DNA of 64,000 nucleotides from Candidatus Cybelea sp. (GCA_049285915.1 JBAQAW010000058.1:1739-65738), one strand, 5' to 3'. Positions 5,096-54,238 are shown, numbered from the stretch's first letter. Made by a program: numbers and translations. Notes: generated from the sequence alone by a model not told the origin.

Positions 5096-5205
5096 CTCTT
5101 TCCAAACGGCCTATTCGACCGAACCGTGGACCGACGCCTACGGCGCCCGGAGGGCGGGACGACCTTTCGCGTGAAAGCGAACTCTCCGATAAGGAGCAAG
5201 ATTAC

Positions 5206-6895: not shown

Positions 6896-6913
6896 GAAAG
6901 GAGACGCGACTGA

Positions 6914-7846: not shown

Positions 7847-7913
7847 TCGTTGTATCAGCGAGAGATGAAAAAAGCGTAAAGATAAGAACGTAGCTAGCGG
7901 GAGGGTGTGGGTT

Positions 7914-9243: not shown

Positions 9244-9317
9244 CCGGGCATAGCCGCTTTCAAAGCAACGTCGGCAAGCAGGAGGGGAACCGCATGTAAG
9301 TTGGGTAAATCTAGCGC

Positions 9318-28719: not shown

Positions 28720-28896
28720 CCTGCGAGGGTCGTTCGTTCCGGTAAGCCGGCTTCCATGGCTCCGCTGGAAGGAGAGCGACCGGTTGCCACGCGATGACCC
28801 GAGAGGGGCCGCGGTGAAGTAGCCCGACGCTGACTGGAATCGTCGAACGCATTGGCCGGGCGGCGCGTTCTCGTTAGAGAGGAGCACTACATTGCT

Positions 28897-34030: not shown

Positions 34031-35320
34031 ATGGAGCGCTCCCTTTTCGGTTTAACGGCGATGGTGCTGGCCGCGGTACTTTGCGGTTGCGGCGGGATGC
34101 AAGGATCGGGCGGCGCGCCGGGCAGCGCCCTCCCTGGGGGCAGTGGCTTCGGCGTTTCGCGAGCGACGAGCTCGGGAAGTCCGATTCAGCACGTCGTGAT
34201 CATGGTGCAAGAGGCGCGCAGCTTTAACGCGATCTTTGGAACGACTAAGATTGCGAAGGCGCGAGCCGGCAAAGGCAAGCATTCACACACGATCACCATT
34301 AGGCTGCGGAAAGTCGGCTTCAACGCGAAGGGACCGTCGAAAACATTGCACGATGCGTACCTTCGCGATCTGGGCAACGGCAAGATGGACGGATTCTATG
34401 AGGAGAACGGCCGCGTCGCCTACGAGTACCTCGACCCCGCCGTGATTCGACCCTATTCGGCGATTTCGTCCGACTACGCCGTGGCCGACCGCATGTTCGA
34501 GACGCAGGGGAGCGGCGACTTCACCGCCCATCAAGATCTTATTCGCGGCGGAACCGAGATTAGCTCGAAGGCAAGCGTCATCGACATTCCGAGCGGTGTG
34601 CCCTGGGGCTGCGACGCCCCGCCCGGTATAACGACGAATCTCATTACAACCAGTGGGCGATACGAGGCGCGCGGCGGTCCGTTCCCATGCTTTACTTACG
34701 ATACCTTGCAGACGCGGTTCGATCGAAAATCAATTGCATGGAAATATTACGTACCATCGTGGCGTTCCGATGTATCCTTATCTTGGAACGCCTTCGCTGC
34801 GATCAAGGCCGTGGCCGATAATAAGCGCGAGTGGAACGCGCACATCTCGTCACCGGAGACCAACGTACTGAGCGATATCGCCAATGGCGAGCTGCCGGCC
34901 GTATCGTGGGTGATCCCCTCCGCGCCAAACTCCGATCTTCCGAACTATCCGCACGCCTCCGGTGGCCCGAGTTGGATCGCCGCGGTCGTCAACGCCGTCG
35001 GGCAGAGCAAGTATTGGGACTCGACGGCGATCGTTATCGTTTGGGACGACTGGGGCGGCTTCTACGACCCCGTTCCGCCGCCGAATCGCGACGACCAAGG
35101 CGGCCCCGGGTTCCGGGTGCCGATGCTCGTGGTCTCGCCCTATACGCCGCAAGGCTACGTCTCGCACACGGTCTATGGCTTCGGCAGCATCATTCGCTTC
35201 GTCGAGGAGACGTTCGGCCTCAAACCGCTGGGGACGACCGACGAGACGTCGAACAGCATGAAGGACATGTTCGACTTCAATCAGTCGCCGCGGCCGTTCG
35301 AGCAGATTCCATCGAAGTAG
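34031..35320 (+). CDS. PE-A-derived paralog with substituted catalytic motifs (candidate pseudo-enzyme)
   Basis: Lipobox VLCGC. Full-length PE fold motifs are retained (WGCDAPPG, WKYY, GPSWI, VIVWDDWGGFYDPV, GFRVPMLVVSPY). However QENRSF is QEARSF, GSGSFTAHQ is GSGDFTAHQ, and SDHPG is SDLPN. Confidence 0.8.
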   Translation: MERSLFGLTAMVLAAVLCGCGGMQGSGGAPGSALPGGSGFGVSRATSSGSPIQHVVIMVQEARSFNAIFGTTKIAKARAGKGKHSHTITIRLRKVGFNAKGPSKTLHDAYLRDLGNGKMDGFYEENGRVAYEYLDPAVIRPYSAISSDYAVADRMFETQGSGDFTAHQDLIRGGTEISSKASVIDIPSGVPWGCDAPPGITTNLITTSGRYEARGGPFPCFTYDTLQTRFDRKSIAWKYYVPSWRSDVSLSWNAFAAIKAVADNKREWNAHISSPETNVLSDIANGELPAVSWVIPSAPNSDLPNYPHASGGPSWIAAVVNAVGQSKYWDSTAIVIVWDDWGGFYDPVPPPNRDDQGGPGFRVPMLVVSPYTPQGYVSHTVYGFGSIIRFVEETFGLKPLGTTDETSNSMKDMFDFNQSPRPFEQIPSK

Positions 35321-35330: not shown

Positions 35331-36320
35331 GTGACCGGATTTCGAATCTTCGCGGCCGGAATTTCACTGGCCGTGGCGACCGGCTGCGGCGGGTCCGCGG
35401 GAGGCGTCGTACCCGACGGTCCTTTCGGCGCAGTAACGCGAGCCGTGCATCGCGATCGCGGCGCGTCGTGGATGGATCACGACGCCGTCAGCCGAGCTAG
35501 GCTTCTCTACGTCACGGATGTGCTCGACGGCGACGTCTACGTGCTCTCGCTTCCAACTGGAAAGCTGGTTGGGAAGCTCACAGGCTTCAACCGCCCCACT
35601 GGCGACTGCGTCGACGGGCAGGGGAACGTGTTCGTCGCAGACTCGCAAGACGGGAGTATTCGTGAGTTTCACCACGGAGCGAAAGAGCCGTCCAACGTGC
35701 TGAACGACAGCGGCTATACTCCATTGGGGTGCTCGGTCGATCCCGTCTCCGGAAACCTCGCCGTTACGAATTCGACCGGCAACCGGAATCGGTCAGGGGC
35801 GGGGAACGTGGCGATCTACAAAAAAGCAAAAGGCGCACCGAGGTACTATTCCGACAAGAGTATCAAGGAATACGGTTTCTGCGCGTACGACACGCTGGGA
35901 AACCTCTACTTCAATGCGGCCACTCCGGTATTGCTCGCAGAGTTGCCGAGGGCAGCGAAGACGTTCGTTAGGCTCAATCTCGATCATGGTAACGGCGAAG
36001 CCGAAGGCGCGATGCAATGGGATGGTAAGCACCTCGCGATTGGCATTGGCACCAGGACGATCTACGAATACGCAATCCAGGGAGACAAAGGGATCGAGAC
36101 CGGTTCGACCCAGCTTGGAAATTCGACAAGCGTCCTCGGTTTTTGGATTTCCGGAGCGAGGGTCTACGCGCCGGTTTATGAGAACAGCCTCGGGAGCGTC
36201 GGCGTCTATCGGTATCCCGCCGGAGGAAAGGCCAAGCAGCAATACTACGCGGTCATCAATCCGTGGAGCGCGACGCTGAGCGTTAAACAGGAGAGCCAGC
36301 GCAGCGGCGCTCACTTATAA
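35331..36320 (+). CDS. BP1: beta-propeller lipoprotein, 10 nt downstream of the degenerate PE gene
   Basis: GTG 5 nt after GGGAG. Lipobox AVATGC. LLYVTDVLDGDVYVLSLPTG, DCVDGQGNVFVAD, GCSVDPVSGNLAVTN, FCAYDTLGNLYFN, MQWDGK, VYRYPAGG. Confidence 0.8.
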   Translation: MTGFRIFAAGISLAVATGCGGSAGGVVPDGPFGAVTRAVHRDRGASWMDHDAVSRARLLYVTDVLDGDVYVLSLPTGKLVGKLTGFNRPTGDCVDGQGNVFVADSQDGSIREFHHGAKEPSNVLNDSGYTPLGCSVDPVSGNLAVTNSTGNRNRSGAGNVAIYKKAKGAPRYYSDKSIKEYGFCAYDTLGNLYFNAATPVLLAELPRAAKTFVRLNLDHGNGEAEGAMQWDGKHLAIGIGTRTIYEYAIQGDKGIETGSTQLGNSTSVLGFWISGARVYAPVYENSLGSVGVYRYPAGGKAKQQYYAVINPWSATLSVKQESQRSGAHL

Positions 36321-37554: not shown

Positions 37555-38652
37555 ATGAGATCCGTTCTGCTCATAGCCACAATCATTCTTAGCGGTTGCG
37601 CGATGCCGAGCGCTTTCGGCAGCCGCGCGGTCCCGCTTGCGCGGGCGGCCGTTCGACCGGCGACACCGAGCGCCTACCTTTACGTCGCCGACGACGGCGG
37701 CACACTGAACTACGGCGGCGTCACCGTCTACGATCCCGGCCTGCGGCGCGCCGTGAGGAGTATCGCTCGAGGGGCGTTCAATCCGATGTCGATTGCCGTC
37801 GGCGGGGACGGAACGCTCTACGTGCTCAACGAGTCTTCCGGTTATGCCGGCGGCATCCGCGTAACCGAGTACGACGCCGGCAGTCATAAGCCGTCGCGCA
37901 GGATCGATAACCTTTACTGGGGCGTCATGCTGACGACGGACGTTTCGAATAACCTTTATTTGGCCAACTGCAACTCGTGCGTCATCTACGGCGCGCCCTT
38001 GCGGAACAACGTGTCCGATACGGTGACGGTTTACGGGCCGAAGCAGACGAAACCGCTGCGCACGATCGAGCAGGGAATCCATACGCCGCAGTCGCTCGCG
38101 GTCGACTCGCGAGGATACATCTACGTTGCCAACGGCGGAACTCCGAAGGCCCGGCCGTCCATCACCGTCTACGCGCCCGGATCGACGGCGCTCTTGCGCG
38201 AGGTGAAGCTAAGCATTCATCGTGATTTGAAGTACATGACGCTCGACTCACAGGGGAATCTTTACGTAACCAATCGCGATGAGGTCATCGAGTTCGGGCC
38301 GGGCCTGCACCCCGTGCTGCGCCGCATCCGCGACGAAGTTGAAGGTCCGCGTGCGCTGGCGGTTGATCCGTCGGATAACCTCTACGTCGCCAACGACGCC
38401 GGCTTCCCCGCGACCTATGGGATCTCGGTTTACCCGCCCGGCGCCACGCATGCGAAGTACCGTATCAAACCCGACGTCAACGATCCGGTAGCACTTGCGA
38501 TCGATGGCGACGGCAGGCTGTACGTCGCCAACGACGGCGGTACGGGCAACGGCGACCTCGAGGTATTCAAACCCGGCGCGCGCCGGCCGGCGCGGCTACT
38601 TGCCGGCAATCAGTACGGCGATCCGATCGCGTTCGCGTTCGGAGTGCAGTAG
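37555..38652 (+). CDS. BP2: NHL-repeat beta-propeller lipoprotein
   Basis: Trimmed to MRSVLLIATIILSGC. Blades PMSIAVGGDGTLYVLNE, PQSLAVDSRGYIYVANGG, PRALAVDPSDNLYVANDAG, PVALAIDGDGRLYVANDGG. Confidence 0.8.
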   Translation: MRSVLLIATIILSGCAMPSAFGSRAVPLARAAVRPATPSAYLYVADDGGTLNYGGVTVYDPGLRRAVRSIARGAFNPMSIAVGGDGTLYVLNESSGYAGGIRVTEYDAGSHKPSRRIDNLYWGVMLTTDVSNNLYLANCNSCVIYGAPLRNNVSDTVTVYGPKQTKPLRTIEQGIHTPQSLAVDSRGYIYVANGGTPKARPSITVYAPGSTALLREVKLSIHRDLKYMTLDSQGNLYVTNRDEVIEFGPGLHPVLRRIRDEVEGPRALAVDPSDNLYVANDAGFPATYGISVYPPGATHAKYRIKPDVNDPVALAIDGDGRLYVANDGGTGNGDLEVFKPGARRPARLLAGNQYGDPIAFAFGVQ

Positions 38653-38661: not shown

Positions 38662-39768
38662 ATGAAACGCTCGATCTTTTGCTTTGCGAGCGCGGTGCTG
38701 CTCGCGAGCTGCTCCGCACCGCCTGGGCTTACTCTGGGCCCGGCAAAACCTAGCGAACGTGCCGGGCAGCCCTTGACGTCGAGCGGTCCGCAACGGCTTT
38801 ACGTGGCGGAGTGCTGCGGCGTGCTCAACACGGGCGACGTCGTGCGCTACGGGCCCAGCGAAGAGGGCATTGCGCATCGCTACGTCAACGGCGCGCACTT
38901 CCCGTTGCAGATCGCGACCGACGATTCGGGAACGCTCTACGTCCTCAATGAGTCGAATCTCGGCCCGCAAGGGATCGCGATTACCGAGTACGATCGCGGC
39001 AGCCCGCAACGCTCGCGGCGCATCGGCTATTTTTACTGGGCAACGACCTTCGCCCTCGACCGCAAGGCGAAGGTTTACGTCGCAAACTGCAATACGTGTA
39101 CGTACTCGAGCGCGCGCCCGCAGGCGAAGCCGTCGGACTCGGTCACGATCTATCAGACGAAGGGAACGCAGCTCGTCGAGACGATCACGGACGGCATCTA
39201 CGAGCCGCAGGCGCTGGCTTTCGATCGAAGCCAGAATCTCTACGTCTCCAACGCCGGCGCGCGCCATCATTCGCCTTCGGTCACGATTTACGCGCCGGGT
39301 TCGACGTCGCCGATGCTGACGATCACGAAGGAGATTACGAGCCCGGGAGCGCTCGGCTTCGATCGCGCCGGTAATTTCTACGTAGCCGACGGGCAGCAGC
39401 GGGTCCTGGAGTACGCGCCCGCGTCAGATCGGATTTTGCGGACGATCCGAGACGGCATTCGGGCCCCGAAGGCGTTACAGTTCGGGCGTTACGGGCGCCT
39501 CTACGTCGCGAACTGGCCGCCCAGCGGAACCGGCTGGATATCGGTGTATTCTCCCGGCAGCACGACGCCGAGGTACGAGATCGAGAACAACGTCCAATAC
39601 CCCGTTTCGATGGTGCTCGACAGCAAAGAGAACCTGTACGTCGCCAATCTCGGCAACTACGGCGACAGCTGGGTCAGCGTCTACGAGCCGAGCGACGGGG
39701 CATTGATTAAGACGATTCGGGGCGGCAAGCATGGGCCGCCGCGTTCGCTCGCGTTCGGGGTGCGCTAA
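38662..39768 (+). CDS. BP2: NHL-repeat beta-propeller lipoprotein
   Basis: Lipobox LLASC. Blades PLQIATDDSGTLYVLNE, PQALAFDRSQNLYVSNAG, PGALGFDRAGNFYVADG, PKALQFGRYGRLYVANW, PVSMVLDSKENLYVANLG. Confidence 0.8.
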   Translation: MKRSIFCFASAVLLASCSAPPGLTLGPAKPSERAGQPLTSSGPQRLYVAECCGVLNTGDVVRYGPSEEGIAHRYVNGAHFPLQIATDDSGTLYVLNESNLGPQGIAITEYDRGSPQRSRRIGYFYWATTFALDRKAKVYVANCNTCTYSSARPQAKPSDSVTIYQTKGTQLVETITDGIYEPQALAFDRSQNLYVSNAGARHHSPSVTIYAPGSTSPMLTITKEITSPGALGFDRAGNFYVADGQQRVLEYAPASDRILRTIRDGIRAPKALQFGRYGRLYVANWPPSGTGWISVYSPGSTTPRYEIENNVQYPVSMVLDSKENLYVANLGNYGDSWVSVYEPSDGALIKTIRGGKHGPPRSLAFGVR

Positions 39769-39859
39769 CCCTTCGACAGCCCTTCGACAGCCCTTCGACA
39801 AGCTCAGGGTGACACGGGGGACACGGGGGACGCGGGGGACGCGAGGGATGCGAGGGTCA
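39769..39859 (+). repeat. Dispersed repeat with modular tandem parts
   Basis: 3 x 11-bp CCCTTCGACA(G/A), core GCTCAGGGTGACA, then 5 x 9-bp CG(G/A)GGGA(C/T)(A/G)-like units (39815..39859). Read directly. The 9-mers and the core overlap the 3' end and stop codon of the minus-strand LAL gene. Confidence 0.8.
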
Positions 39860-42662
39860 CGAGTTCGGTGCGTGAGCGGACGCCGAGTTTACGATAGGCC
39901 GACGCGAGGTGGGTCTCCACCGTTCGTTCGCCGATCGCCGTCTCCGAGGCGATCGCTCTGTTCGTATAGCCGCGGGCGGCAAGCTCGACGATCTGGCGCT
40001 CGCGCGGCGTGAGATCGAGCGCGTTCGAGCGTTCGGGCTTGTGGACGCTGCCGGTACGAATGCGGCGCAGCGCTCGCGTCGCGCCGACGCTCTCGTAGAT
40101 CGTTGCGGCGCGTTCGAGGTCTCCGCCGGCTTCAGCGGCGAGCGCTTCTTCAACGCGCCAGCCCAACGCGTGAAAGGCATCGGCGGCGTCGAGGCAGGCT
40201 CGCGTATCGCCGGCGCGGCGCGCGTCGAAGAGCCGCAGAAACGCCGCAGCGAGCGGATTCTTCGAATCTTGTGCGATCTGCGCGACCAGCGCGCGGGCTC
40301 CGGCGGCGCGATCATCGTCAAGCAACTCGGCGGCCACGTCGCAGAGCCAGTAGGTTTGGTCGGGGACCTTGACGACTTCGAGCGCCTTCTCGACGATTGC
40401 GCGGGCACGCTCGCGTTCCCCGCACTCGAGCAGGGTGCGCGCCGCCGCTCCGGTGACGGCGGCGACGAGCTGCGATTCGCGCAGCTGAAGCACCGACGCA
40501 ACGGCGCTCTCGATATCGATGGCATCGAGCTCGCCGGCGTCGAGCAGGCCGCGCAGCCGCAGTCCCAGCACCCAGGAGAATCCGGCCGACATCGGCGACA
40601 TCGAGTGGGTCGACGTGCAGTCGCGGAAGCTTTGCAGCGCAGATTGGAGTCTGCCGGCGTACATCGCGGCGAGGCCGGAGTCGCAGCGCAGCATCGCAGC
40701 GTTGCGCTGCAGCCCGTAGCGTTCGGCCAGGCCCAGGGCGTAGGCGTACATCGACTGCGCCTCGGCCAGCGAGCCGCCCAGCACCAAGACGTTCGAGACA
40801 TTACCGAGCGCGTGCACCTGGTAGAGCGTGTTGTCGATGCGTTCGGCGACCGCCAGCGCCGCGCGGTGCTCGTCGCGCGCGGTGGAGTACATGCCGAGCG
40901 ACGCGAAGGCGTTCCCGCGGGCGGTGTGGGCGCGTCCGCGATCGGCGTCGTCTTTTGGCCCGGTGTCGCGCTCGGCTTCGTCCAGCACGGCCAGGGACTC
41001 GCGAGCGCGGCCGAGCGTCGAGAGCATCCCAGCCAGCGTGGTCGCAGCGTGATAGTGAATCGCCGCAGTGCGCTGACCTTTGAGTTCGGCGCGCACCAAC
41101 TCGGTCGTCTCGAGCGCGCGATCGACGTCGCCGGATTCGTAAAGCTGGCGCGCCAGGCGCAGCATCAGCGTGAAGGCGGCATGCTCGTCGCCGGAGCGGC
41201 GAAGCTCCTGTGCGCCGAGCTGGCACCACGTCCGCGCGCGCTGAAACTCGCCGACAACGTTGAGCGCGAAGGAGACCTTGCCGACGAGCCGCGCCCGATC
41301 GTAATCGTGCGCGAAATCCAGCGCACGCTCGTACGAGCGCGACGCATCGCCGTACGCGTACATCGCGGCGAAGCGGTCGCCGGCGGCTTCGTTGGCGAGG
41401 ATCGCGCGCGACACATCGCCGGCCGCCCAGAGGTGGTACGCGATCTCGTCTTCGTTGGCGGCGGGATCGTTTTCCAGCAGCGCCGCGATGCGGCCGTGAA
41501 GGCGCCGCGCCTGCGAGTGCAGCAGCTCGCGATAGATCGTCTCACGCGTGATCGCGTGGCGGAAACGGAAGGGCGGATGCGCGGTGCGCTCGACGACGAG
41601 CTGCACGTTGCGCGCGCGATGCAGCGCGGCAAGAATATCGTCTTCCTTTGCATCCATGAGCGCGGCGAGGAGCTCGGCATCGAAGTCGCGGCCGATCACC
41701 GCGGCAGCGAGCATCGCCTCCTGTTCGTTGGGCGCCATCGCTCGCAAACGTTGGATGATGCTGGCCGCGATAGAGCCGGGAATGCCGCCGGCTTCGGCGC
41801 GGTCCCCGTCGAGCGCGCTGCGCAGCAACTCTTCGGCGACCAGCGGGTTGCCTTCGGAGAGAGCGACGATCCGATCGCGCTGATGCGAATCGAGCGGCCG
41901 CGACGTGTCCGCGCCCGAAAGCAGCGAGCCGATATTGGTGTCGGAGAGCGGCTCCAAGCGAAGGTTGGCCACGCCTTCGCGCACCGCGCGCGAGAGCTGC
42001 GCGGCGCGCGAGGCGTCGCGTGAGATCTCTTCGCTGCGATAGGTTCCGAGAATCAGTACCGGAGCGTCGCTGAGGCGGCGCGCGAGGTGACGCCAGAGGT
42101 CGAGCGTCGCCGCGTCGCTCCACTGCAGGTCCTCGACGACGACGAGCACGGCGCCGTCTTCGGCACAGCGGCGGCGGAGGTGCTCTTCGACGAGGCGGAA
42201 ACGGCGCAGCCGTTCGGTCTCGGGGGCAACGACGCGCTCTGCGAGGCCGCGCAGCTCGCGTTCGAGCGGGGAGGCGCGATCGCCGGAGATCAGCGCTTCG
42301 ATCAGCGGCTCGTACGGCGTCGAAACGTACTCGACGCAGGTACCGTGCAAGACGAGGCAGCGCTCGCGGCGGACCCGATTCTCAAACTCCCGCAGCAGGC
42401 GCGACTTGCCGACGCCGGCGTCGCCGCCGATCATCAGCGCGCCGCCCGTCCCCTCGGCCTTGGTCTTGCGAAAGGCCGCGAGCAGCCGCGCGAGCTCGGG
42501 CTCGCGTCCAACGAAATGCTCGAAGCCGGTGTCGGTCACGGTGGAACGATGCTTCCGGGCCGCCTCCGTACCGCTCCTGCGTGGGTACGTACCCGCCGCG
42601 GCCCGAGAATGCGTACCGGGGCATCGGGCTCTCCGTAGCTTCACGGATAGGCGGCCGGGCAC
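39804..42662 (-). CDS. LAL-family regulator (AAA+/TPR/LuxR HTH), copy 2
   Basis: P-loop GGDAGVGKSRLLREF, VVVEDLQWSD, C-terminal LTPRERQIVELAARGYTNRAIASETAIGERTVETHLASAYRKLGV. By comparison with copy 1 the true start is probably the GTG at 42539 (VTDTGFEHFVGREPEL). Confidence 0.85.
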   Translation of the reverse strand: MPGRLSVKLRRARCPGTHSRAAAGTYPRRSGTEAARKHRSTVTDTGFEHFVGREPELARLLAAFRKTKAEGTGGALMIGGDAGVGKSRLLREFENRVRRERCLVLHGTCVEYVSTPYEPLIEALISGDRASPLERELRGLAERVVAPETERLRRFRLVEEHLRRRCAEDGAVLVVVEDLQWSDAATLDLWRHLARRLSDAPVLILGTYRSEEISRDASRAAQLSRAVREGVANLRLEPLSDTNIGSLLSGADTSRPLDSHQRDRIVALSEGNPLVAEELLRSALDGDRAEAGGIPGSIAASIIQRLRAMAPNEQEAMLAAAVIGRDFDAELLAALMDAKEDDILAALHRARNVQLVVERTAHPPFRFRHAITRETIYRELLHSQARRLHGRIAALLENDPAANEDEIAYHLWAAGDVSRAILANEAAGDRFAAMYAYGDASRSYERALDFAHDYDRARLVGKVSFALNVVGEFQRARTWCQLGAQELRRSGDEHAAFTLMLRLARQLYESGDVDRALETTELVRAELKGQRTAAIHYHAATTLAGMLSTLGRARESLAVLDEAERDTGPKDDADRGRAHTARGNAFASLGMYSTARDEHRAALAVAERIDNTLYQVHALGNVSNVLVLGGSLAEAQSMYAYALGLAERYGLQRNAAMLRCDSGLAAMYAGRLQSALQSFRDCTSTHSMSPMSAGFSWVLGLRLRGLLDAGELDAIDIESAVASVLQLRESQLVAAVTGAAARTLLECGERERARAIVEKALEVVKVPDQTYWLCDVAAELLDDDRAAGARALVAQIAQDSKNPLAAAFLRLFDARRAGDTRACLDAADAFHALGWRVEEALAAEAGGDLERAATIYESVGATRALRRIRTGSVHKPERSNALDLTPRERQIVELAARGYTNRAIASETAIGERTVETHLASAYRKLGVRSRTELVTLASLASPASPVSPVSP

Positions 42663-42903
42663 GACGGCGATAGGCTGAAGGGGTGGTGTGGAGTGGCGTC
42701 GCCGCCCGCGCGGCCTTCGCCGCCTCGCGGCGGTGGAGCATCAGGACCGCCCGCTTTCGGCGTCCCGGCTACGACGCGGACGGACGCTGTACACGGAGCA
42801 CAGCGGCCACGGGCGGTCCTCGGTGTCTTGGAGTGGCGATTTGGAGGTGTAGCCTTCAACGCAAACGTCGGCGGCGCGATGGCCGTCAGCATCGGAGATT
42901 AGA

Positions 42904-43971
42904 ATGAAACAGCTCGCCTTTATCATTGCTTCGATTCTCGTGGCTGCGAGCAGCGTCGGTTGTTCGAGCACGCAGTCGCAGGGAGGCTTTCAGCCGGCGG
43001 TTCCGACCGGTACGGCGGTCTTGTCGATGGCCCATCCGGTGCAGATGCCGATTCGTCCGGATCGGCTCGCTTCGTCGATGGCCGTGGGCGCGTCGAAGCG
43101 AGGCGGACTCCTCTACGCCGACGACTGGGCGACCAACGCGGTATACGTCTTCGACTACCCAAGCGGAAAGCAGGTCGGAGTTCTCACCGGGTTGGATGCG
43201 CCGTACGGCATGTGCGTCGACGCGCAGGGCGATATCTACATCGGAAACTTCTACGGCAACACGCTCGTCGAGTACGCGCACGGCGGCGATATGCCGCTGA
43301 AGACCTATTCGGTGGTTGGTCAGCCGATGGGGTGCAGCGTCGACGCCAAGGGCGATGTCTCGGTTACGAGCTTCAATCCCGGCGAGGTGATGGTCTTTGC
43401 CGGCGGCGATCCAACGAAGGGAACGACGTATGCGGGGCCATGCGAGTTTCAGTGGACGATGGGATACGACGATAAGCGAAATCTGGTCGGCGTTGGCGAG
43501 GAGTCGACCGGCGCGATCGTGGCCTGCGCCTTGCTCGCGGGTTCGAAATCGATCATCGTGCTCTCGGGGTGTTGCACCGGACCGATGCAGATCGATTTTG
43601 CGGGCGGCACGATGTGGGACGGTAAGTATCTGGCGGTCGGCAATCAGGAGGTAGGCGGTTCGTTCGAAAGCGGTGTTTATCAGGCCAAGGTCTCCGGGAC
43701 GACGCTGAAGGTGTACGGTCAAACGGACCTTACGGACAACTGCTTTAGCAACTACACCGACGTCGTGAATCCGTTTGTCGTCGGGAAGAAGAATACGCCG
43801 GCCAATCGGCGGCAAGGCAAGGTCATTCTCGGGTCCAACCTCTGGTGTAACGACGCCGGCAGTGGAGGAGGAATCAATCTGTGGCACTACCCGGCCGGGG
43901 GGCCGGTGTTTCGACAGATCGGAGCCTCGCTCGGCGAGCCGTACGGCGCCGCGGTAAGCTTCGCGAAATGA
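42904..43971 (+). CDS. BP1: beta-propeller lipoprotein, array member 1
   Basis: Lipobox SSVGC. DWATN, YPSG, APYGMCVD, VEYAHGG, GCSVD, VTSFNPG, GPCEF, ACALLAGS, LSGCC, TMWDGKY, KNTP, LWHYPAGG. Confidence 0.85.
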   Translation: MKQLAFIIASILVAASSVGCSSTQSQGGFQPAVPTGTAVLSMAHPVQMPIRPDRLASSMAVGASKRGGLLYADDWATNAVYVFDYPSGKQVGVLTGLDAPYGMCVDAQGDIYIGNFYGNTLVEYAHGGDMPLKTYSVVGQPMGCSVDAKGDVSVTSFNPGEVMVFAGGDPTKGTTYAGPCEFQWTMGYDDKRNLVGVGEESTGAIVACALLAGSKSIIVLSGCCTGPMQIDFAGGTMWDGKYLAVGNQEVGGSFESGVYQAKVSGTTLKVYGQTDLTDNCFSNYTDVVNPFVVGKKNTPANRRQGKVILGSNLWCNDAGSGGGINLWHYPAGGPVFRQIGASLGEPYGAAVSFAK

Positions 43972-45002
43972 CGAGAGGCGCGGGCTGGTCGCTTCTGGGT
44001 GCGCTGGCAGGCGTTGCCGTCGCGGGTTGCGCCGGCGTCCAAGCAACGGGCTCCGGAGCGGCACCCCCGCTGGAAGCCGCCCGAGGCGCTGCGCCGGATC
44101 GGCGCCCGTCATACATGGCGCCGGACGCGAAGAAGAAGTCCAGACTGATGTACGTGGGCGATTGGGCGACGAACGACGTTTTCGTCTACGAATATCCCAG
44201 CGGCGACAGCGTCGGCACGCTGAGCGGTTTCGATGCGCCGTACGGCATGTGCGTCGACAAGAAGGGCGACGTGTACATCGCGAACTTCTACAGCGGAAAC
44301 GTCGTCGAATACGCGCACGGGGGGACAAACCCGCTCAACACCTATACGTCGGTTGGTGAGCCGATCGGGTGCAGCGTCGACCGAAAAGGCGATCTCGCCG
44401 TTACGAGCTTCAATCCCGGCGAGGCGATCGTCTTTGCCGGCGGCGATCCGTCGCGAGGCACAACGTATAGCGGACCCTGCGAGTTCCTGTGGACGATGGG
44501 ATACGATGATAAGGGCAACCTCGTCGGCATCGGCGAGGAAGCCGGCAGCACAATTGCAGCCTGTGCGCTGCTTGCGGGTTCGAGCTCGATGATCACGCTC
44601 TCGGGCTGCTGTAACGGGCCGATAGAGATCGATTTTCCCGGCGGCACGATGTGGGACGGCAAATACCTCGTGATCGGCGCACAAAGCATAAACAGCAAAT
44701 TCGAGAGCGGCCTGATTCAAGCGACCCTTTCCGGAACGACGTTAACGCAACGCGGCTTCACCAAACTCAGCGATACCTGCTTTGGCAGCTACGCCGACGT
44801 CGTCTTTCCATTCATCGTTGGGAAGAAAAACACGCCGGTCAACCGGCAGCAAGGCAAGGTCGCCATCGGCGTTAATCTCTGGTGCAACGACAAGGGCAGC
44901 TCCGGCGTCAGCTTGTGGCATTACCCGGCGGGTGGAGATCCATTCAAAACGCTGGAGCACATGCCGGCAGAACCCTACGGCGCGGCCGTCAGCCTGAAGT
45001 GA
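43968..45002 (+). CDS. BP1: beta-propeller lipoprotein, array member 2
   Basis: ATGA overlap with member 1. MTRGAGWSLLGALAGVAVAGC. Same invariant strings as member 1. Confidence 0.85.
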   Translation: MTRGAGWSLLGALAGVAVAGCAGVQATGSGAAPPLEAARGAAPDRRPSYMAPDAKKKSRLMYVGDWATNDVFVYEYPSGDSVGTLSGFDAPYGMCVDKKGDVYIANFYSGNVVEYAHGGTNPLNTYTSVGEPIGCSVDRKGDLAVTSFNPGEAIVFAGGDPSRGTTYSGPCEFLWTMGYDDKGNLVGIGEEAGSTIAACALLAGSSSMITLSGCCNGPIEIDFPGGTMWDGKYLVIGAQSINSKFESGLIQATLSGTTLTQRGFTKLSDTCFGSYADVVFPFIVGKKNTPVNRQQGKVAIGVNLWCNDKGSSGVSLWHYPAGGDPFKTLEHMPAEPYGAAVSLK

Positions 45003-45031
45003 AAGCGACGGAGCTTCGAAGGAGACGAAAA

Positions 45032-46081
45032 TTGAAAAAACTCAATTCTGTTTTTGGGGTTGCGTTTTTGGCGGCGGCGATCGGCGGCTGCGGCGGAGGC
45101 CAGTCGACGGGTGTTGGCGGCGCGTCGCCGCAGGATACCGCCGGGCGACTCTCTCTGACGATGCCGCACTACGTGCCGGCGGCGGTGACGTCCGATCGGC
45201 ATCCGTCGAACATGTCGCCTGACGCAAAGAAGAAGGGCGCGCTGCTCTACGCCGGCGATTGGGCGACCAACGACGTGCTGGTCTACGACTACCCCAGCGG
45301 CAAGAGCGTCGGGACGCTTACCGGGTTCGACGCACCCTACGGCATGTGCGTCGACGCAAAGGGCGACGTCTACATCGCAAACTTCTACGGCGGCACCGCG
45401 GTCGAGTACGCCCACGGTGGGACGAGTCCGTTGAAAACCTATACGCAGGTCGGAGAGCCGATTGGATGTTCGGTCGACGCGAAGGGCGATGTCGCGGTTA
45501 CGAGCTTCAACCCGGGTGGAGTGACCGTCTTTGCCGGCGGCGATCCTTCAAAAGGCACGACGTATACGGGCCCCTGCGAGTTCCAGTGGATGATGGGCTA
45601 CGACGGGAAGGGGAACCTTATCGGTATCGGCGAGCAGCAGACGGACACGATCTCCGCATGCGCGCTGCTGGCCGGATCGCAATCGATAACGGTGCTTTCG
45701 GGATGCTGCACCGGGCCGATCACGGTCGACTTCCCGGGCGGAACGATGTGGGATGGAAAGTATATCGCGCTGGGCGATCAGGAGTTCGCCGGAACGTTCG
45801 GAACGGGCATGTATCAGGCGACGCTTTCCGGCACGACGCTCACGATGAAAGGATCTACGCCCCTGGACGCCTGCCCGAGCAGCTACGCCGACGACGTCAG
45901 TCCGTTTATTCTGGGAAAGAAAAATACGCCCGCCAATCACCGCCAGGCGAAAATCGCCATCGGAGCGGATGGCAAGTGCAACTCGGGAGCGATCGGGCTA
46001 TGGCACTATCCCGCGGGCGGCGGACCGTTTAAGGAAATTGGCACGATCGCATCCTCCGTCGTCGCCGTAAGCTTGAAATGA
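45032..46081 (+). CDS. BP1: beta-propeller lipoprotein, array member 3
   Basis: TTG start about 5 nt after AAGGAGAC, giving (M)KKLNSVFGVAFLAAAIGGC. Same invariant strings. Confidence 0.8.
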   Translation: MKKLNSVFGVAFLAAAIGGCGGGQSTGVGGASPQDTAGRLSLTMPHYVPAAVTSDRHPSNMSPDAKKKGALLYAGDWATNDVLVYDYPSGKSVGTLTGFDAPYGMCVDAKGDVYIANFYGGTAVEYAHGGTSPLKTYTQVGEPIGCSVDAKGDVAVTSFNPGGVTVFAGGDPSKGTTYTGPCEFQWMMGYDGKGNLIGIGEQQTDTISACALLAGSQSITVLSGCCTGPITVDFPGGTMWDGKYIALGDQEFAGTFGTGMYQATLSGTTLTMKGSTPLDACPSSYADDVSPFILGKKNTPANHRQAKIAIGADGKCNSGAIGLWHYPAGGGPFKEIGTIASSVVAVSLK

Positions 46082-47109
46082 GAGTTAACATGAAATCGTT
46101 TAGGATTGTCTTGGGTTCGTGTCTGCTTTCGGTGCTTCTCGCCGCTTGCGGCGGGAGCCAGTCGTTGGGCGGAGGGGCCGGCGGCGTAGCGATGATGCCG
46201 GGCCTGCCCGGCGATCGGCATATGGCGTATATGGCGCCGGATGCGAAGGAGAAGTCCGCGCTGATGTACGCCGCCGATTGGGCGACCAACGACGTCTTCG
46301 TCTACGACTATCCGAGCGGAAAACAGGTGGGCATGCTCACCGGCTTCGTCGCTCCCTACGGGATGTGCGTCGACAAAAAGGGCGATATCTACATTTCGAA
46401 CTTTTACAACGGGACCGAAGTCGAGTACGCGCACGGCGGGACGAGCCCGTTGAAAACGTATGCTTCCGTCGGCGAGCCTATGGGCTGCTCGGTCGACGCA
46501 AAGGGCGATCTTGCCGTGACGAGCTTCAATCCGGGCGAGGTGATCGTCTTTGCCCGCGGCGATCCGACGAAAGGTACGACCTATACCGGGCCGTGCGAGT
46601 TCCTCTGGACGATGGGCTACGATCCCAAGGGCAATCTCATCGGCCTCGGCGAGGAGGGTCACGGTGCGATCGTCGCCTGCGCGCTGCTCGCCGGATCGGA
46701 GTCGATGATTACGCTCTCTGGCTGCTGCACCGGCCCGATTCAGATCGACTTTCCCGGCAGCACGATGTGGGACGGAAAGTACATCGCGCTCGGCGACCAG
46801 GAAGTAACCGGAAAAATCGAAGCGAGCGCCATCGCGGCTAGCCTCTCCGGGACGACATTGAGCGAGCACGGCACGACGATCCTGGCTGACGATTGCGGCT
46901 CGTATACACCGGCGGCGAACCCATTCATAGTCGGCGCTAAGAACACGCCCGCGAACCGCCGGCGAGGCCGAGTCGTCGCCGGGGTGCTTCCCTGCAGCGG
47001 GTCGTCGGGGGGAATCGGCCTGTGGCACTATCCAAGGGGCGGCGCTCCGTTCAAAAGCTACACCGGTCTGAGCGATCCGCACGGCGTCGTCGTGAGCCTA
47101 AAAACCTAG
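46078..47109 (+). CDS. BP1: beta-propeller lipoprotein, array member 4
   Basis: ATGA overlap with member 3 (ATG 46090 is an alternative start). Lipobox LLAAC. Same invariant strings, LWHYPRGG. Confidence 0.85.
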   Translation: MRVNMKSFRIVLGSCLLSVLLAACGGSQSLGGGAGGVAMMPGLPGDRHMAYMAPDAKEKSALMYAADWATNDVFVYDYPSGKQVGMLTGFVAPYGMCVDKKGDIYISNFYNGTEVEYAHGGTSPLKTYASVGEPMGCSVDAKGDLAVTSFNPGEVIVFARGDPTKGTTYTGPCEFLWTMGYDPKGNLIGLGEEGHGAIVACALLAGSESMITLSGCCTGPIQIDFPGSTMWDGKYIALGDQEVTGKIEASAIAASLSGTTLSEHGTTILADDCGSYTPAANPFIVGAKNTPANRRRGRVVAGVLPCSGSSGGIGLWHYPRGGAPFKSYTGLSDPHGVVVSLKT

Positions 47110-47382
47110 TCGAGAGGCAAAAAAGGTGGCGCCTTTCGAGTTGTCCGGGTTACTTGTCCGGGTGTCGGTTAATAAGTAGTCCGGTCGACCCATCATAATT
47201 GAAGTGTGGATCCGGTTGGAGTAGCACTCTTGGGGGGAACGCGTGGGGTCCTGTTACGTTACGTCCTCGTTGGTGCCATTTCTTGACTGCGACATGAGCT
47301 CTGAGTCGTATGGGGTAGCCGTTCCTACCGGGACCTAGCAAGGCACGCAAATCATCCACTCGGGGATGAAGCGCGCCTCACC

Positions 47383-47419
47383 CAAGCGCCCTGCCTCAGC
47401 TGAAAGGGCAGGGCGCTTG
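47383..47419 (+). terminator. Strong hairpin (13-bp perfect stem, 11-nt loop), terminator-like, weak U-tract
   Basis: CAAGCGCCCTGCC-TCAGCTGAAAG-GGCAGGGCGCTTG followed by ATTTGA. Confidence 0.45.
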
Positions 47420-47483
47420 ATTTGAGGGAAGAAGTGCCGGCGTAAGCCCGTAGCTACTTCACCGATTTTGGACGGATTTATCG

Positions 47484-48854
47484 ATGGTACGTAGACTCAG
47501 CGTCTTTTTTCTTGCGGGTGCCGTTCTTACAACCTCTGGCTGTTCGCTACCGACGGATCGGGGATCCGGCAACGTCGCCGTTTCAGGCGCCGCGGGGAGT
47601 TCGGCCAGGCCCGCTACCGGCAGTCCGATCTCGCATATCGTCGTCATCATTCAAGAGAACCGGAGCGTAGACAACCTGTTTAACGGATTTCCCGGCGCCG
47701 ACACCGTGACTTCTGGTCAGAACATCTACGGGCAGACCGTTTCTCTGAAGCCGGAATCGCTGGCGGCGCCTTACGATATGGGCCACCGGCACGGCAGTTG
47801 GCTGCTCGACTACAACCAGGGAAACATGAACGGCTTTAGCACCGAAAGCATCGACTGTTATGCCAAGCACGGGCAGTGTCCGCCGAGGGACGTCGCGGCA
47901 TACGGCTACGTTCCGAAGGCGGAGGTACAGCCGTACTGGGATATGGCCGAGCAATACACCTTCGCCGACGAATCGTTCCAGACGAACCAAGGTCCAAGCT
48001 TTCCCGCGCACCAGTACCTGATTAGCGGAACTTCTAGCATTGGGAACGGCTCGAAGTACCTGGCGTCGGACAACCCCGGCGATACGGTAGGAAAGGGGAA
48101 TCAAGGCGGCTGTGACTCCGTGCGCAGCACGACGGTCCGGACAATCGACTCCCAAGGGAAGCAGGGGCCGTTCGTCTTTCCCTGCTTCGACCGCAACTCG
48201 ATCCTGCAGGAGATGAACGAGCAATCCGTGAGCTGGCACTACTATCAAGAGTTCAAAGGTTCCGGCCAGTGGCACGCCCCCGACGCCATCGAAAATATCC
48301 GCAACGGCCCAAGCTACACGAACGTAGAGTGGCCATCGTCGGCGGTGCTCGAGGATATCGACCGCGGCTACTTGGCGGACGTTTCGTTCGTTACGCCAAA
48401 CGCAGCCGAATCGGATCACTCCGGCAGAAACAACGGCAGCGGGCCTTCGTGGGTGGCATCGATCGTCAATAGGATCGGTGAGAGCCAATACTGGAACAGC
48501 ACCGCGATCATCGTGATCTGGGACGACTGGGGCGGCTGGTACGATCACGTGCCGCCGAAGATATTCAACTCGTACGAGTTGGGCTTCCGCGTGCCGATGA
48601 TCGTGATCTCCCCGTACGCGAAGCCGAATTACGTCTCGCACGTGCCGTACGAGTTCGGCAGCATCCTCAAGTTCATTGAAGAGACGTTCGACGTCGCGTC
48701 GCTAAACACGACGGACGTGCGCGCTACCGATCTCTCCGACTGCTTCAATTTCAAGGGCTCGCCGCGCCCATTCAAGCCGATCGCCTCGAAATACTCGGCG
48801 GCGTACTTCGAGCACCAGCCGATCGATTACGAGAGTCCCGACGACGATCGGTAG
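47484..48854 (+). CDS. PE-C: PLC/AcpA-family phosphoesterase lipoprotein
   Basis: Lipobox TTSGC. VVIIQENRSVDNLF, GPSFPAHQYLISGT, ESDHSGR, GPSWV, VIWDDWGGWYDHVPP, GFRVPMIVISPYA. Confidence 0.9.
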   Translation: MVRRLSVFFLAGAVLTTSGCSLPTDRGSGNVAVSGAAGSSARPATGSPISHIVVIIQENRSVDNLFNGFPGADTVTSGQNIYGQTVSLKPESLAAPYDMGHRHGSWLLDYNQGNMNGFSTESIDCYAKHGQCPPRDVAAYGYVPKAEVQPYWDMAEQYTFADESFQTNQGPSFPAHQYLISGTSSIGNGSKYLASDNPGDTVGKGNQGGCDSVRSTTVRTIDSQGKQGPFVFPCFDRNSILQEMNEQSVSWHYYQEFKGSGQWHAPDAIENIRNGPSYTNVEWPSSAVLEDIDRGYLADVSFVTPNAAESDHSGRNNGSGPSWVASIVNRIGESQYWNSTAIIVIWDDWGGWYDHVPPKIFNSYELGFRVPMIVISPYAKPNYVSHVPYEFGSILKFIEETFDVASLNTTDVRATDLSDCFNFKGSPRPFKPIASKYSAAYFEHQPIDYESPDDDR

Positions 48855-51476: not shown

Positions 51477-52000
51477 CACGCCGCCATACTCTTCTCGAGC
51501 CGGGATCCCGAGCACCGGTCGCACGTCATCCACATCGTCCGCGACGTGGTCGAGATCGTCGCGATCGTTTTGGCAGGCGCCTGGGCGTTCTACGTCTTCA
51601 TCTACGAGAACCGGATCAAACCGTCGTTTACCGACCTGCAGACGGACGTCTCCGCTACGATGCAAAAGACGAGCCAGCGCGACGGCGCGACGGGAGTTCT
51701 TCTTAAGCCTGGATCGAGCCGTTCACCGCGACGGTCTACACGCCGAGCCGTCTTGCGCTGCAGTTGCTGACGTCGCCGCCGGTCACGTTCGATTTGCACG
51801 ACGGCAAGATCGCGGCCGATCCGGACGGCTCGCGGCCCGGCGCCGGCCTACCCTTCAACGCCGGCAGCGGCAACGGCGACATTCGTGCGCCACTCGTGGA
51901 AGCCGGGCGTGGGCTCGACGCCGATTACGCGCGTTTGGGCAGCGCGCGGGTTGCGGTTCGAGGCAAGATCGTCTTGATGCCGGATTCGCCGGATGATTTG

Positions 52001-52477
52001 CTAGGCTCTTCGCTTTCGCTCGGCTCGGCGAAAGACCGGATACACGATCGGCATCATGAGCGAGTTATAGAAAAACTTGAGCGCACTCGTCCGGAAACCG
52101 GGCGGCAGACGTCCCTCGTCTGCATCGATAATTGGGAAAGATTTCAGCTGCCTTTCCATCTTGGTGCTAAACTCGAGCCGCTCGGCGGCGCTGCGGCTGG
52201 TGTTGGCAAGGGCCCGGCGTATGCCGGCTTCATCGTCGGCCTCGCTGCAGATGTCCGCGGAAAACTCCGCGTCGCTCATCCCGAGAAAACGTAGTACGCT
52301 GCCGTCCATGAAGTCGTTATCACCATAGAGATATCCGTTCATCAAATCGTTTCCCGATTCGCGGCTCTGCTGCGCGCGGCGGGCCTTTTGCGCCATGCGC
52401 TTCACCCAAACCATTCCGTCGACCCTCTCCGACCCCGAGCACGGTATCCACGACATGGGTTTTTCTCCTTCGTTCAT
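52001..52477 (-). CDS. DUF5069-like protein
   Basis: GMVWVKRMAQKARRAQ...YLYGDNDFMDGSVLRFLGMSDAEF resembles the DUF5069 N-terminal signature. Recognition from memory. Confidence 0.55.
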   Translation of the reverse strand: MNEGEKPMSWIPCSGSERVDGMVWVKRMAQKARRAQQSRESGNDLMNGYLYGDNDFMDGSVLRFLGMSDAEFSADICSEADDEAGIRRALANTSRSAAERLEFSTKMERQLKSFPIIDADEGRLPPGFRTSALKFFYNSLMMPIVYPVFRRAERKRRA

Positions 52478-52521
52478 TTTAGCCCGGATTCACTTGACGA
52501 TTTGACGAAAATACATCTAAG

Positions 52522-54174
52522 CCGGGATTCCCCATATGGCCGTCCTTTTCGAGCCGACGGCGGGCAACTCCGTCGATTTTCTGGGCGTTTGGCAAGCCAA
52601 GTTGTCAGTTCGGCCCGAGTTGAAGCCTGCGTCGGGCCACGTAGCGCCAAAAGCTTCGCAGCGCGGTCATAGGGACACACCTCTCCCATTGGTTTCCGGC
52701 GCATGTAGTCGGCCGGGGTGATCATGTTACCGCCGCCAACGGCGGCGATCGAAGCGAAGCGATTCTCTCGACGATGGCGCCGAACAACTTGCGCGGGATC
52801 GCGACCTCCGCCATCTGAAACGCGACATACCGGCCGTGGCTGACGACCTTCGCGCCGATCTTGATCAGCTTCTCGCGCAGCGTTGTCAACGACCACTCGG
52901 CAATCGCCTCGGGAATCGCCAACGTCCGAAGGAAGTTGCCAAGATTGTACGCCAGCGCGTGAAGCTGGAGTCGGACTGCGTTTGCGTCGAACGACTGGCA
53001 CGAGAGCCGCGTCCCCTTTAGTGCGCCTTTCCATTCTTTTATGCATTGCTCAGCCGTTCCGCGCTGATTGTAAAACTCGACGACGTGCTCCGACTTGCGA
53101 CGCAGGTTCGTAACGATGAATCCGACGCGAGGAAACAGCTCCCCGAAATGCCATTCTACCTTAGCGATGACCCGCCGCGGCCGCGACCAACTCGCAGCCT
53201 GATAGCGGAAGCTCCTGTAGAAGCGCTGCACGTAGTGCGCCGGCCGACCGACCGGCCGCTTGAGCAAGTCAGCGATCTCCGCCTGGAGTATCTGATTGGC
53301 GGGAAGGCGGATGGCGTATTCGATGCCCTCCGATTCGAGGTACTCGTACATGCTCGGCTGCGCAAAGGCAGCGTCGCCACGAAACGCGATGCTTTCGGCA
53401 GATTGTTGGTAGCGCGCAACGACCGGCTTGAGCACCGCTTCCCAGCCGTCAGCACTATGGACGTTGCCAGGGCGAAGCGCGCATCGTTCCAGATCGCCAT
53501 CCTGATTGAAGACGAAGAGCGGATGGTAGCACGTACAGCCGAAGTGTCCGTTCCAAACGCTGCTCTCTTGATCGCCATGCGTTGGGCTGACGCTCGAGTC
53601 CATGTCGAGTACGGCGCGACCGCGTGGACGACGTTTCGCAACCTGGTCAATCCAGTGACCGGAGAGATCGGCGAGCGTTGCGAGGTTCTCCGGCCTTGCC
53701 AGACAGTTCGTTTCGAATCGGCCCATCTGGCTCGGTGACGCGCCCGACCCTTTCGTTGCTTTACCGCCGATGATGTAGCGTATGGCGGGGTCGTGCCGCA
53801 AACGGAGCGCGTCGTTCACGTCTTCATATCCGGCAAGCCTGCCGAAGAGTGATTGCCGCAACATGCCGACGAGGGCGTGGCGACCGTTCTTGCCCGTGCG
53901 CGCATCGGCGAGAAGATCCCCGGCCGACGTTGTCAATCCAAGTGCATCGTCAAGTTCGCGATATGCGAGCAAACCTGCATCCGAGGTGACGACCGAGCCG
54001 CGAAACTGCACCATGATGCGGCGGTCGAAATCGAGTCGTAAAACGTCGTTTTCGGTTTCACCCGTCGGGTTCGTCAATCCAGCCTCACATCATGAGCGCG
54101 ATTCCTCATATGTAGTATAGCAGAACCGCTGTGCATCAGCAGCGGATTTGCGAATGCATCCGGGGAATGCGGGT
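52522..54174 (-). mobile_element. IS1380-family insertion sequence (about 1.65 kb) flanked by TAAG direct repeats
   Basis: Imperfect terminal inverted repeats CCGGGATTCCCC (52522..52533) and GGGGAATGCGGG (54162..54173). TAAG at 52518..52521 and 54175..54178. Single DDE transposase ORF inside. Confidence 0.75.
52722..54077 (-). CDS. IS1380-family DDE transposase
   Basis: N-terminus FRGSVVTSDAGLLAYRELDDALGLT, GRLAGYEDVNDALRLRHDP, ASPSQMGRFE. 451 aa, typical for IS1380-family transposases. Confidence 0.85.
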   Translation of the reverse strand: MTNPTGETENDVLRLDFDRRIMVQFRGSVVTSDAGLLAYRELDDALGLTTSAGDLLADARTGKNGRHALVGMLRQSLFGRLAGYEDVNDALRLRHDPAIRYIIGGKATKGSGASPSQMGRFETNCLARPENLATLADLSGHWIDQVAKRRPRGRAVLDMDSSVSPTHGDQESSVWNGHFGCTCYHPLFVFNQDGDLERCALRPGNVHSADGWEAVLKPVVARYQQSAESIAFRGDAAFAQPSMYEYLESEGIEYAIRLPANQILQAEIADLLKRPVGRPAHYVQRFYRSFRYQAASWSRPRRVIAKVEWHFGELFPRVGFIVTNLRRKSEHVVEFYNQRGTAEQCIKEWKGALKGTRLSCQSFDANAVRLQLHALAYNLGNFLRTLAIPEAIAEWSLTTLREKLIKIGAKVVSHGRYVAFQMAEVAIPRKLFGAIVERIASLRSPPLAAVT

Positions 54175-54238
54175 TAAGACGGCGTTCCGAAACTCAGGAA
54201 CGGTCCGCTTCTATTTCGTCGGTTACGCCGTAACGGTG

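Follow-up and report, generated by a model that had tools for sequence, protein, structure and literature searches.

A tandem array of four predicted propeller lipoproteins in Candidatus Cybelea belongs to a protein family heavily expanded in Eremiobacterota

We analysed a stretch of 64,000 nt (the window; all coordinates count from its first letter) from Candidatus Cybelea sp., an uncultured bacterium of peat soil, in which four paralogous genes, here called copies a to d, lie beside a divergently oriented gene for a LAL/MalT-type regulator, LAL2. The four products are divergent NHL-type six-bladed β-propellers, predicted to be lipid-anchored through a flexible linker. A sequence-only reading of this DNA had described the copies as four head-to-tail paralogues on one strand, and the list of open reading frames (ORFs) and the junction sequences agree with it (Table 1). 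Pairwise protein identity among the copies is 60-69%. The alignment has 155 invariant columns, and every string which that reading had listed as common to the four copies is included in them. The similarity is far above chance, with tblastn E-values of 1e-128 to 1e-141. Elsewhere, the window encodes four more distant paralogues of full length as well as several propeller lipoproteins of other types. The array is a real and tidy expansion of a gene family, and nothing about it is mechanistically unusual.

The four genes are tightly packed. Copy a carries GGAG 7 nt 5' of its ATG start. Copies a and b overlap by the sequence ATGA, and this overlap is kept in both orthologous arrays, found in loci L002 and L081 (three genomes with the present one). 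Between copies b and c there is a 29-nt gap, in which a Shine-Dalgarno sequence, GAAGGAG, is located at 45019-45025, seven bases before the TTG start of copy c. The c/d junction is ambiguous. If copy d starts at ATG 46078, it overlaps copy c by ATGA; if it starts at ATG 46090, an 8-nt gap results. With the second start the lipoprotein signal peptide is cleaner (MKSFRIVLG..LAAC), and this start is the one called in the L081 orthologue. The earlier description of two ATGA overlaps and one 29-nt gap with its own Shine-Dalgarno sequence and TTG start thus holds for a/b and b/c, and holds for c/d only if ATG 46078 is used.

Table 1. Coordinates of the array, its regulator and associated features in the window
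Feature	Position	Strand	Remarks
Propeller lipoprotein copy a	42904-43971	+	355 aa, ATG start, lipobox SVGC
Propeller lipoprotein copy b	43968-45002	+	344 aa, ATG start, lipobox VAGC
Propeller lipoprotein copy c	45032-46081	+	349 aa, TTG start, lipobox IGGC
Propeller lipoprotein copy d	46078-47109	+	343 aa (ATG 46078) or 339 aa (ATG 46090), lipobox LAAC
LAL/MalT-type regulator LAL2	39804-42662 (ORF) or 39804-42539 (orthologue-supported, 911 aa)	-	Pfam, NCBIfam, orthologue starts
Divergent intergenic region	42540-42903	.	Three-genome alignment, L006 sequence, repeats
Conserved non-coding block	42733-42850	+	About 60 nt upstream of copy a; predicted three-way junction, P1 GGACCGCCCG/CGGGCGGTCC
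Conserved non-coding stretch	47110-47430	+	About 320 nt, direct repeat at head, hairpin at end
Two other NHL/SBBP-type propeller lipoproteins	37555-38652, 38662-39768	+	In block syntenic in three genomes
PF04185 phosphoesterase lipoprotein (phospholipase C / acid phosphatase)	47484-48854	+	Conserved downstream neighbour; lipobox
Ten PF04185 paralogues in the window	14132-15529, 15654-17093, 19572-20921, 24071-25588(-), 25801-27219, 27262-28887(-), 28852-30264, 34031-35320, 47484-48854, 55124-56482

All four copies contain a lipoprotein signal peptide whose lipobox ends at residues 20-24, and at least 175 of 192 full-length relatives have a lipobox-like motif. The mature protein consists of a disordered tether of 25-40 residues, rich in Gly, Ser and Gln, followed by a six-bladed NHL-like β-propeller. 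An AlphaFold2 model of copy b, built from 86 sequences, has a mean predicted local distance difference test score (pLDDT) of 89.5 and a predicted template modelling score (pTM) of 0.85; residues 1-45 are disordered, with pLDDT below 50 at the N-terminus. DSSP assigned 23-24 strands, which group into six blades of four; blade 1 is completed by the C-terminal strand, which closes the propeller. When the model was compared with the PDB by Foldseek, no specific structural homologue was obtained, just generic propellers with template modelling (TM) scores of 0.5-0.6 (an archaeal YVTN S-layer domain, Pizza/PknD NHL, LRP YWTD and TRIM-NHL). The model and these matches bear out the propeller fold assumed in the sequence-only reading.

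A search of PDB sequences with the family profile retrieved the PknD sensor domain (1rwi, E = 5.8e-23), Pizza6 (E = 2e-41) and the NHL domains of TRIM2/3 (E of about 1e-7), and the alignment was confined to residues 93-174, corresponding to blades 2-3. Assignment to a curated family failed, as nothing in Pfam, NCBIfam or PADLOC exceeded threshold except NHL (PF01436) in copy d, which scored 22.2 bits against the Pfam threshold of 20; copies a, b and c scored 13.4, 17.5 and 13.9 bits.

Besides the lipobox cysteine, eight cysteines are conserved (95, 135, 171, 199, 214, 215, 271 and 306 in copy-b numbering). We surveyed them in 241 family members taken from the fetched loci and protein matches. 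Cys95 and Cys135 are found in nearly all of these relatives. Most relatives have both or neither of Cys171 and Cys199, and the same holds for Cys271 and Cys306; the adjacent Cys214-Cys215 of the LSGCC string occur together in just about 30. The pairs 95/135, 171/199, 214/215 (vicinal) and 271/306 fit four predicted disulfides. The proteins had been proposed to be extracytoplasmic and stabilised by disulfides; the lipobox of every copy and the pairwise co-occurrence of cysteines support this prediction, which is probably correct. Since a cultured member of the phylum has a Gram-negative diderm envelope with an outer membrane (PMC9758169), the predicted lipoproteins should be periplasmic or surface-exposed. 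A Gln at position Cys+4, considered as a post-lipobox sorting motif, was seen in just 31% of relatives and was dropped.

The regulator upstream of the array has both terminal domains expected of a LAL protein. Its N-terminal NTPase domain (AAA_16, E = 8.1e-28, residues 50-204) contains the Walker A sequence GGDAGVGKS, and a LuxR-type helix-turn-helix (HTH; GerE, E = 8.5e-17, residues 884-938) lies at the C-terminus. The middle region gave TPR_MalT at 26.1 bits against a cut-off of 45, and TPR_12 and TPR_2 were also sub-threshold. The claim of a LAL regulator divergent from the array is therefore retained, with the AAA_16 and GerE domains and a putative TPR region between them, and its start is corrected. 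The LAL2 ORF extends to GTG 42662, and the L081 and L002 orthologues start at the equivalent of GTG 42539 (VTDTGFEHF...), so that the divergent intergenic region measures about 364 nt and not 241. LAL2 evolves much more slowly than its neighbours, many of its 100-nt windows being 97-100% identical between our window and L081.

Near the start of LAL2, at about 42560-42660, there are palindromic motifs of the CTCCGTAC / GTACGGA type, which are recognisable in the more distant L006 locus. They are plausible candidates for LuxR-type operators. Because arrays of other species carry a different HTH+TPR gene upstream in place of the LAL gene, regulator-plus-array is a recurring layout. The arrangement itself is ordinary: a STAND/LuxR regulator stands beside an operon of paralogous envelope lipoproteins of a well-known fold.

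No convincing plus-strand terminator was found within the array; the sole plus-strand consensus match (44782-44797) falls within the coding region of copy b, and matches were about as numerous as chance predicts. A strong hairpin appears only after the last gene, at 47383-47420, with 14 GC-rich base pairs, -35.6 kcal/mol and z = -5.8. With gene overlaps or short gaps, no internal plus-strand terminator and a hairpin only beyond copy d, the four genes are probably co-transcribed, as the sequence-only reading had proposed; this judgement comes from the layout.

Two non-coding segments flank the array. A sequence of 110 nt in the upstream block recurs without change in L081 and in L084, a metagenome contig of 1.6 kb, and with 97% identity in L002; ranked by identity among 100-nt windows, the block falls within the top ~3%. 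It is flanked by a 17-nt direct repeat at 42682-42698 and 42822-42838. It was also considered as an ultra-conserved element, an idea that had to be tempered: the LAL region is 91-97% identical to that of L081, and against L002 the block reaches no more than the conservation of the best LAL coding parts. The block had no match in Rfam and, with model R1, no divergent homologue in 1.2 Mb of related loci; a pattern scan of metagenomes gave one further copy only, which was identical. In the comparison of the window with L081, the block from SDR to copy a averages 91% identity and array copies a and b are 86-90% identical.

The downstream segment is about 95% identical across the three genomes, compared with 84-90% for coding DNA. 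At its head is a direct repeat, TTGTCCGG-N5-TTGTCCGG, at 47141-47161, and at its end the hairpin described above is followed by UUGAUUU (47383-47428). RNAalifold found two compensatory pairs. No Rfam family exceeded its gathering score, the three sub-threshold matches all being to the hairpin. The segment is probably the 3' end or 3' untranslated region of the operon, a small RNA, or the leader of the next (phosphoesterase) gene. The same direct repeat, here with N4 (TTGTCCGG-N4-TTGTCCGG), occurs 55-85 nt upstream of propeller-lipoprotein genes in three other loci of Eremiobacterota, L015 (7842-7861), L018 (7894-7913) and L062 (7761-7780). Its recurrence upstream of family genes suggests a shared promoter or operator element. 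A hairpin similar to that at 47383-47420 also follows the L015 array.

We then asked where the four proteins differ. Variation was classified across twelve sequences (four types in three genomes) and, by the usual propeller convention, the D-A and B-C loops were taken as the top face and the A-B and C-D loops as the bottom face. On these nominal faces, 16 of 69 top-loop positions are invariant versus 36 of 67 bottom-loop positions (Fisher p = 4e-4). Every insertion or deletion of more than one residue falls in the connection from blade 6 to blade 1 or in a top loop of blade 5 or 6, and conservation is highest in blades 2-4. A conserved scaffold with variable loops and non-uniform variation, as described by the sequence-only reading, is thus confirmed. 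Only 19 positions show fixed differences between the four types, and most variable positions vary within types too. For bottom loops, strands and top loops, the pooled orthologue ratio of nonsynonymous to synonymous substitution rates (dN/dS, or omega) was 0.16, 0.27 and 0.29, respectively. No positive selection was detected by region or by 20-codon window, none of the windows in the mature protein exceeding 0.5. Active diversification of the loops is hence not borne out; the substitution ratios indicate that one propeller face is under lower constraint.

These ratios also bear on the idea of variable surface antigens or decoys that phage or predator pressure has diversified, as in variable lipoprotein families. 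The lineage-specific expansion, the lipoprotein anchor and the concentration of indels and substitutions in exposed loops would fit such a role, as would orthologue dN/dS values of 0.22-0.39, which are toward the high side for purifying selection. However, omega stays below 0.5 in all mature 20-codon windows and at 0.29-0.32 in the top loops, and the paralogues are old (synonymous divergence, dS, of about 1-1.6) and show neither gene conversion nor a cassette organisation. An invertase, an invertible promoter and a defence-system signature were looked for and not found, PADLOC giving no defence-system link for the array, and the layout suggests that the four genes are expressed together and not one at a time. 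We consider an antigen or decoy function highly improbable.

To characterise the conserved positions, we used a 70%-non-redundant set of the family. Those conserved in at least 85% of members are glycines, strand hydrophobics, an Asp that ends strand A and a "[YF]xxGG" turn after strand C; none is a polar top-face residue. Among distant members, virtually no residue of the top face is shared. The "invariant strings" mostly correspond to the motif repeated in each blade, in which an Asp closes strand A and a Gly-Gly turn comes after strand C, and do not represent a functional site. In the close subfamily, B strands end in several conserved polar residues (D65, N106, E190, E240 and N303).

Two related genomes share with the window a block composed of SDR, two NHL lipoproteins, LAL, the array, a PF04185 phosphoesterase, cyclophilin and an acetyltransferase. 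In a neighbour-joining tree and by pairwise distances, copies a, b, c and d show clean 1:1 orthology with 82-89% protein identity; for copy a, identity is 82-84% and dN/dS is 0.25-0.31. Types a-d form one clade apart from arrays of more distant species. The dS between paralogues indicates that the duplications are old. Tandem duplication produced the array before the three sampled genomes diverged, and each copy is under purifying selection. There was no sign of gene conversion between paralogues: at the nucleotide level they are about 67% identical and share no exact run longer than 27 nt, and of 70 invariant fourfold-degenerate codons only 19 are the same in all four copies. Since gene conversion was not seen, the invariant strings must be kept by selection at the protein level.

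The copy number is not fixed among relatives. The L002 array has five copies, one of them an extra b-like copy, and a decayed remnant upstream. The extra copy is frameshifted in a run of eight C (9300-9400) in a nanopore assembly, and this recurs in L001, L003 and L004; it reflects either a homopolymer error of nanopore sequencing or a tract that is truly prone to slippage. The L081 array has four copies, one of them extra, and a truncated d orthologue, and arrays of more distant species contain 4-8 members of different type content. The array thus evolves by birth and death.

The sequence-only reading had left a choice between a hetero-oligomeric assembly and diversified specificities. One obligate hetero-oligomeric envelope complex of the four products would explain their joint retention and translational coupling, in keeping with the tight packing, the a/b ATGA overlap kept in three genomes and the retained 1:1 orthologues of all four copies. 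Variation in copy number argues against an obligate complex of constant composition: four genes are present here, five and a remnant in L002, an extra copy with a truncated d in L081 and 4 to 8 of different types in more distant arrays, and many family members are single genes. An obligate complex is thus highly improbable in our judgement, and of the two proposals we favour specificities that have partly diverged.

The family is large. A word-indexed search retrieved at least 630 homologues, all unnamed or "hypothetical", whose named sources are Candidatus Cybelea or other Eremiobacterota; the genus Cybelea is placed in Vulcanimicrobiota (= Eremiobacterota = WPS-2). A profile search of 1.84 billion cluster representatives gave 2755 matches at E ≤ 1e-30, some of which are giant multi-NHL proteins matching through two NHL blades only. 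In a GTDB scan with one genome per species, the best 80 of 218 relative-encoding stretches (77 loci) were kept, and all but three short contigs among these 80 are from Eremiobacterota. The three exceptions (L049, L067 and L080) are binned as Acidobacteriota (Candidatus Acidoferrum / Acidiferrales), which reflects either mis-binning or rare transfer outside Eremiobacterota. One metagenome-assembled genome has at least 21 family genes in the fetched loci alone. Tandem arrays of 4-8 close paralogues occur in several species, and many other loci carry single genes. Published work on Eremiobacterota mentions neither this family nor expansions of NHL proteins or phospholipase C. What is new is the family itself, which is without a curated Pfam or NCBIfam model, has only two of six blades recognisably NHL and a characteristic cysteine set, is almost entirely restricted to one poorly known phylum and is heavily expanded there.

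What these proteins do can be predicted from fold, architecture and gene layout. We propose, at about an even chance, that the family, shaped by birth and death, consists of lipoproteins that bind ligands outside the cytoplasm and whose specificities have partly diverged. This proposal is based on the relationship to a sensor domain, the lack of a family-wide polar site, the anchor-tether-propeller design, the variable top face and the dedicated regulators. LAL2 would activate one mRNA of four genes, whose translation would be partly coupled. The products would be exported, lipid-anchored in the diderm cell envelope and stapled by four disulfides, and would act singly, not as an obligate complex. 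Each would be a non-catalytic ligand-binding module on a constant NHL scaffold, with top-face loops that differ mainly in blades 5, 6 and 1, so that the ligands of the four copies would be related but distinct. If LAL2 works as MalT does, it would respond to a product formed in the cytoplasm from what the propellers capture.

The main rival is that the proteins are enzymes, namely Ca2+-dependent lactonases, esterases or phosphotriesterases of the SMP-30/gluconolactonase/PON type, whose paralogues differ in substrate range; they might scavenge organic phosphorus alongside the neighbouring PF04185 phosphoesterases. All four copies have weak matches to SGL (PF08450), of 22.4, 18.8, 20.5 and 16.4 bits for a to d (E = 1e-4 to 7e-3), and the weakest matches of the PDB profile search include regucalcin and Drp35. 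True propeller lipoproteins of the lactonase type (PF10282) are encoded in neighbouring loci, PF04185 genes often directly adjoin family genes on the same strand (15 of 50), and polar residues are conserved at B-strand ends in the close subfamily. However, the SGL scores of 16-22 bits are below the curated 26.3 and cover 60-90 residues in the NHL-like blades only, no polar residue of the nominal top face or putative tunnel is conserved family-wide, and the adjacency of PF04185 genes is no higher than local family-gene density predicts. In addition, the best sequence relative is a non-enzymatic sensor domain. An enzymatic function is therefore unlikely in our assessment, although it is the alternative that we take most seriously.

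The PF04185 genes suggest a further alternative, in which the array proteins are dedicated partners of these co-expanded phosphoesterases, as substrate-presenting, chaperoning or inhibitory subunits. The ten PF04185 paralogues of the window are interleaved with propeller lipoproteins, one tight pair being formed on the same strand by 34031-35320 and then 35331-36320, and the array has a PF04185 gene as its conserved neighbour downstream. On the other side, the adjacency rate is 17 of 50, about what chance predicts from family-gene density in a sample that is biased to family loci, and a strong terminator-like hairpin separates the array from its PF04185 neighbour. We regard a dedicated partnership as improbable and, because the adjacency matches the local density, treat the PF04185 association as a lead and not as evidence. 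PF04185 is abundant in related loci, and the 17-kb locus L055 carries eight such genes. A broader and equally doubtful picture is that the propeller lipoproteins are modular envelope receptors which capture organic-phosphorus or polymeric substrates for PF04185 lipoproteins, in arrays that are switched by their own STAND-type (LAL or HTH-TPR) sensors and flanked by RNA-like elements. They might then form a system for scavenging nutrients in oligotrophic acidic soils that would be peculiar to Eremiobacterota.

Several points weigh against our preferred proposal of ligand binding with partly diverged specificities. Binding by the array proteins is predicted from fold and sequence. The top and bottom faces were assigned from DSSP strand order and not from coordinates. 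The variability within types fits relaxed constraint as well as it fits tuned specificity. D65, N106, E190, E240 and N303 could form a shared site, though they are also positions of the NHL repeat motif. The single transcription unit and its control by LAL2 are likewise predictions, made from gene layout, and the adjacency of LAL and array is kept only in close relatives and L006.

The rest of the window contains related modules. A second LAL gene, LAL1 (2312-5095, minus strand), is divergent from a more distant family member at 5206-6162. They belong to a module at 878-8927, which comprises an NHL lipoprotein (878-1846), LAL1, the family member at 5206-6162, SDR, a truncated family member (6914-7438) and a propeller lipoprotein (7905-8927). 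In L078 the LAL1 orthologue adjoins a different gene. The pstB gene is located at the start of the window (122-790). A 2.5-kb segment at 51699-54177, which contains a DDE transposase (52722-54077; PF13701, E = 9e-133), is missing from the otherwise collinear L002 and is probably an insertion sequence specific to this Cybelea genome.

Peat, tundra and other nutrient-poor soils harbour Eremiobacterota/Vulcanimicrobiota in abundance, and almost no member of the phylum is in culture. A family with thousands of 50%-identity clusters in public data, all "hypothetical", is a large gap in our picture of how this phylum meets its environment. The finding in itself challenges no current idea. The family can now be defined as a lipoprotein with a tether, a six-bladed NHL-like propeller and four probable disulfides, and the comparisons show that it evolves by tandem birth and death under purifying selection. 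The regulators and conserved non-coding elements beside the arrays offer concrete starting points for transcriptomics and for screening recombinant proteins for ligands.

The closest known relatives are the extracellular sensor domain of PknD from Mycobacterium tuberculosis (PDB 1RWI) and the Pizza proteins, whose design was derived from it, which like the array proteins have a six-bladed NHL-type propeller outside the cytoplasm. The profile match covers blades 2-3, and Foldseek aligns 184 residues with a root-mean-square deviation of 2.8. The PknD sensor is a non-enzymatic module presumed to bind a ligand, and the same is proposed here for the array proteins. The PknD propeller is highly symmetric and fused to a transmembrane kinase, whereas the array propeller is a free predicted lipoprotein. 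Unlike PknD, the array family has only two of six blades recognisably NHL, eight added cysteines and arrays of paralogues. The SGL (PF08450) hydrolases regucalcin and Drp35 share the general fold and size with the array proteins and give weak matches over two blades, but the array family scores below threshold, gave no evidence of the metal-binding tunnel residues and has no polar site conserved family-wide.

Lipid-anchored envelope propellers for ligand capture are represented by Bacteroides BtuG2 (8PTF) and Leptospira Lp49 (3BWS), with Foldseek TM scores of about 0.5. They differ from the array proteins in blade number and have no detectable sequence relationship with them. To our knowledge, tandem arrays of four to eight paralogues have not been described for propeller lipoproteins of this type. 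LAL2 resembles MalT and the actinomycete LALs, which also have AAA_16 with Walker A, a TPR region (putative in LAL2), a LuxR-type HTH and about 900 residues and are divergent from a putative target operon. It differs in that its TPR_MalT match is below threshold (26 bits against a cut-off of 45) and in its putative target, which is a lipoprotein array and not a catabolic or biosynthetic pathway.

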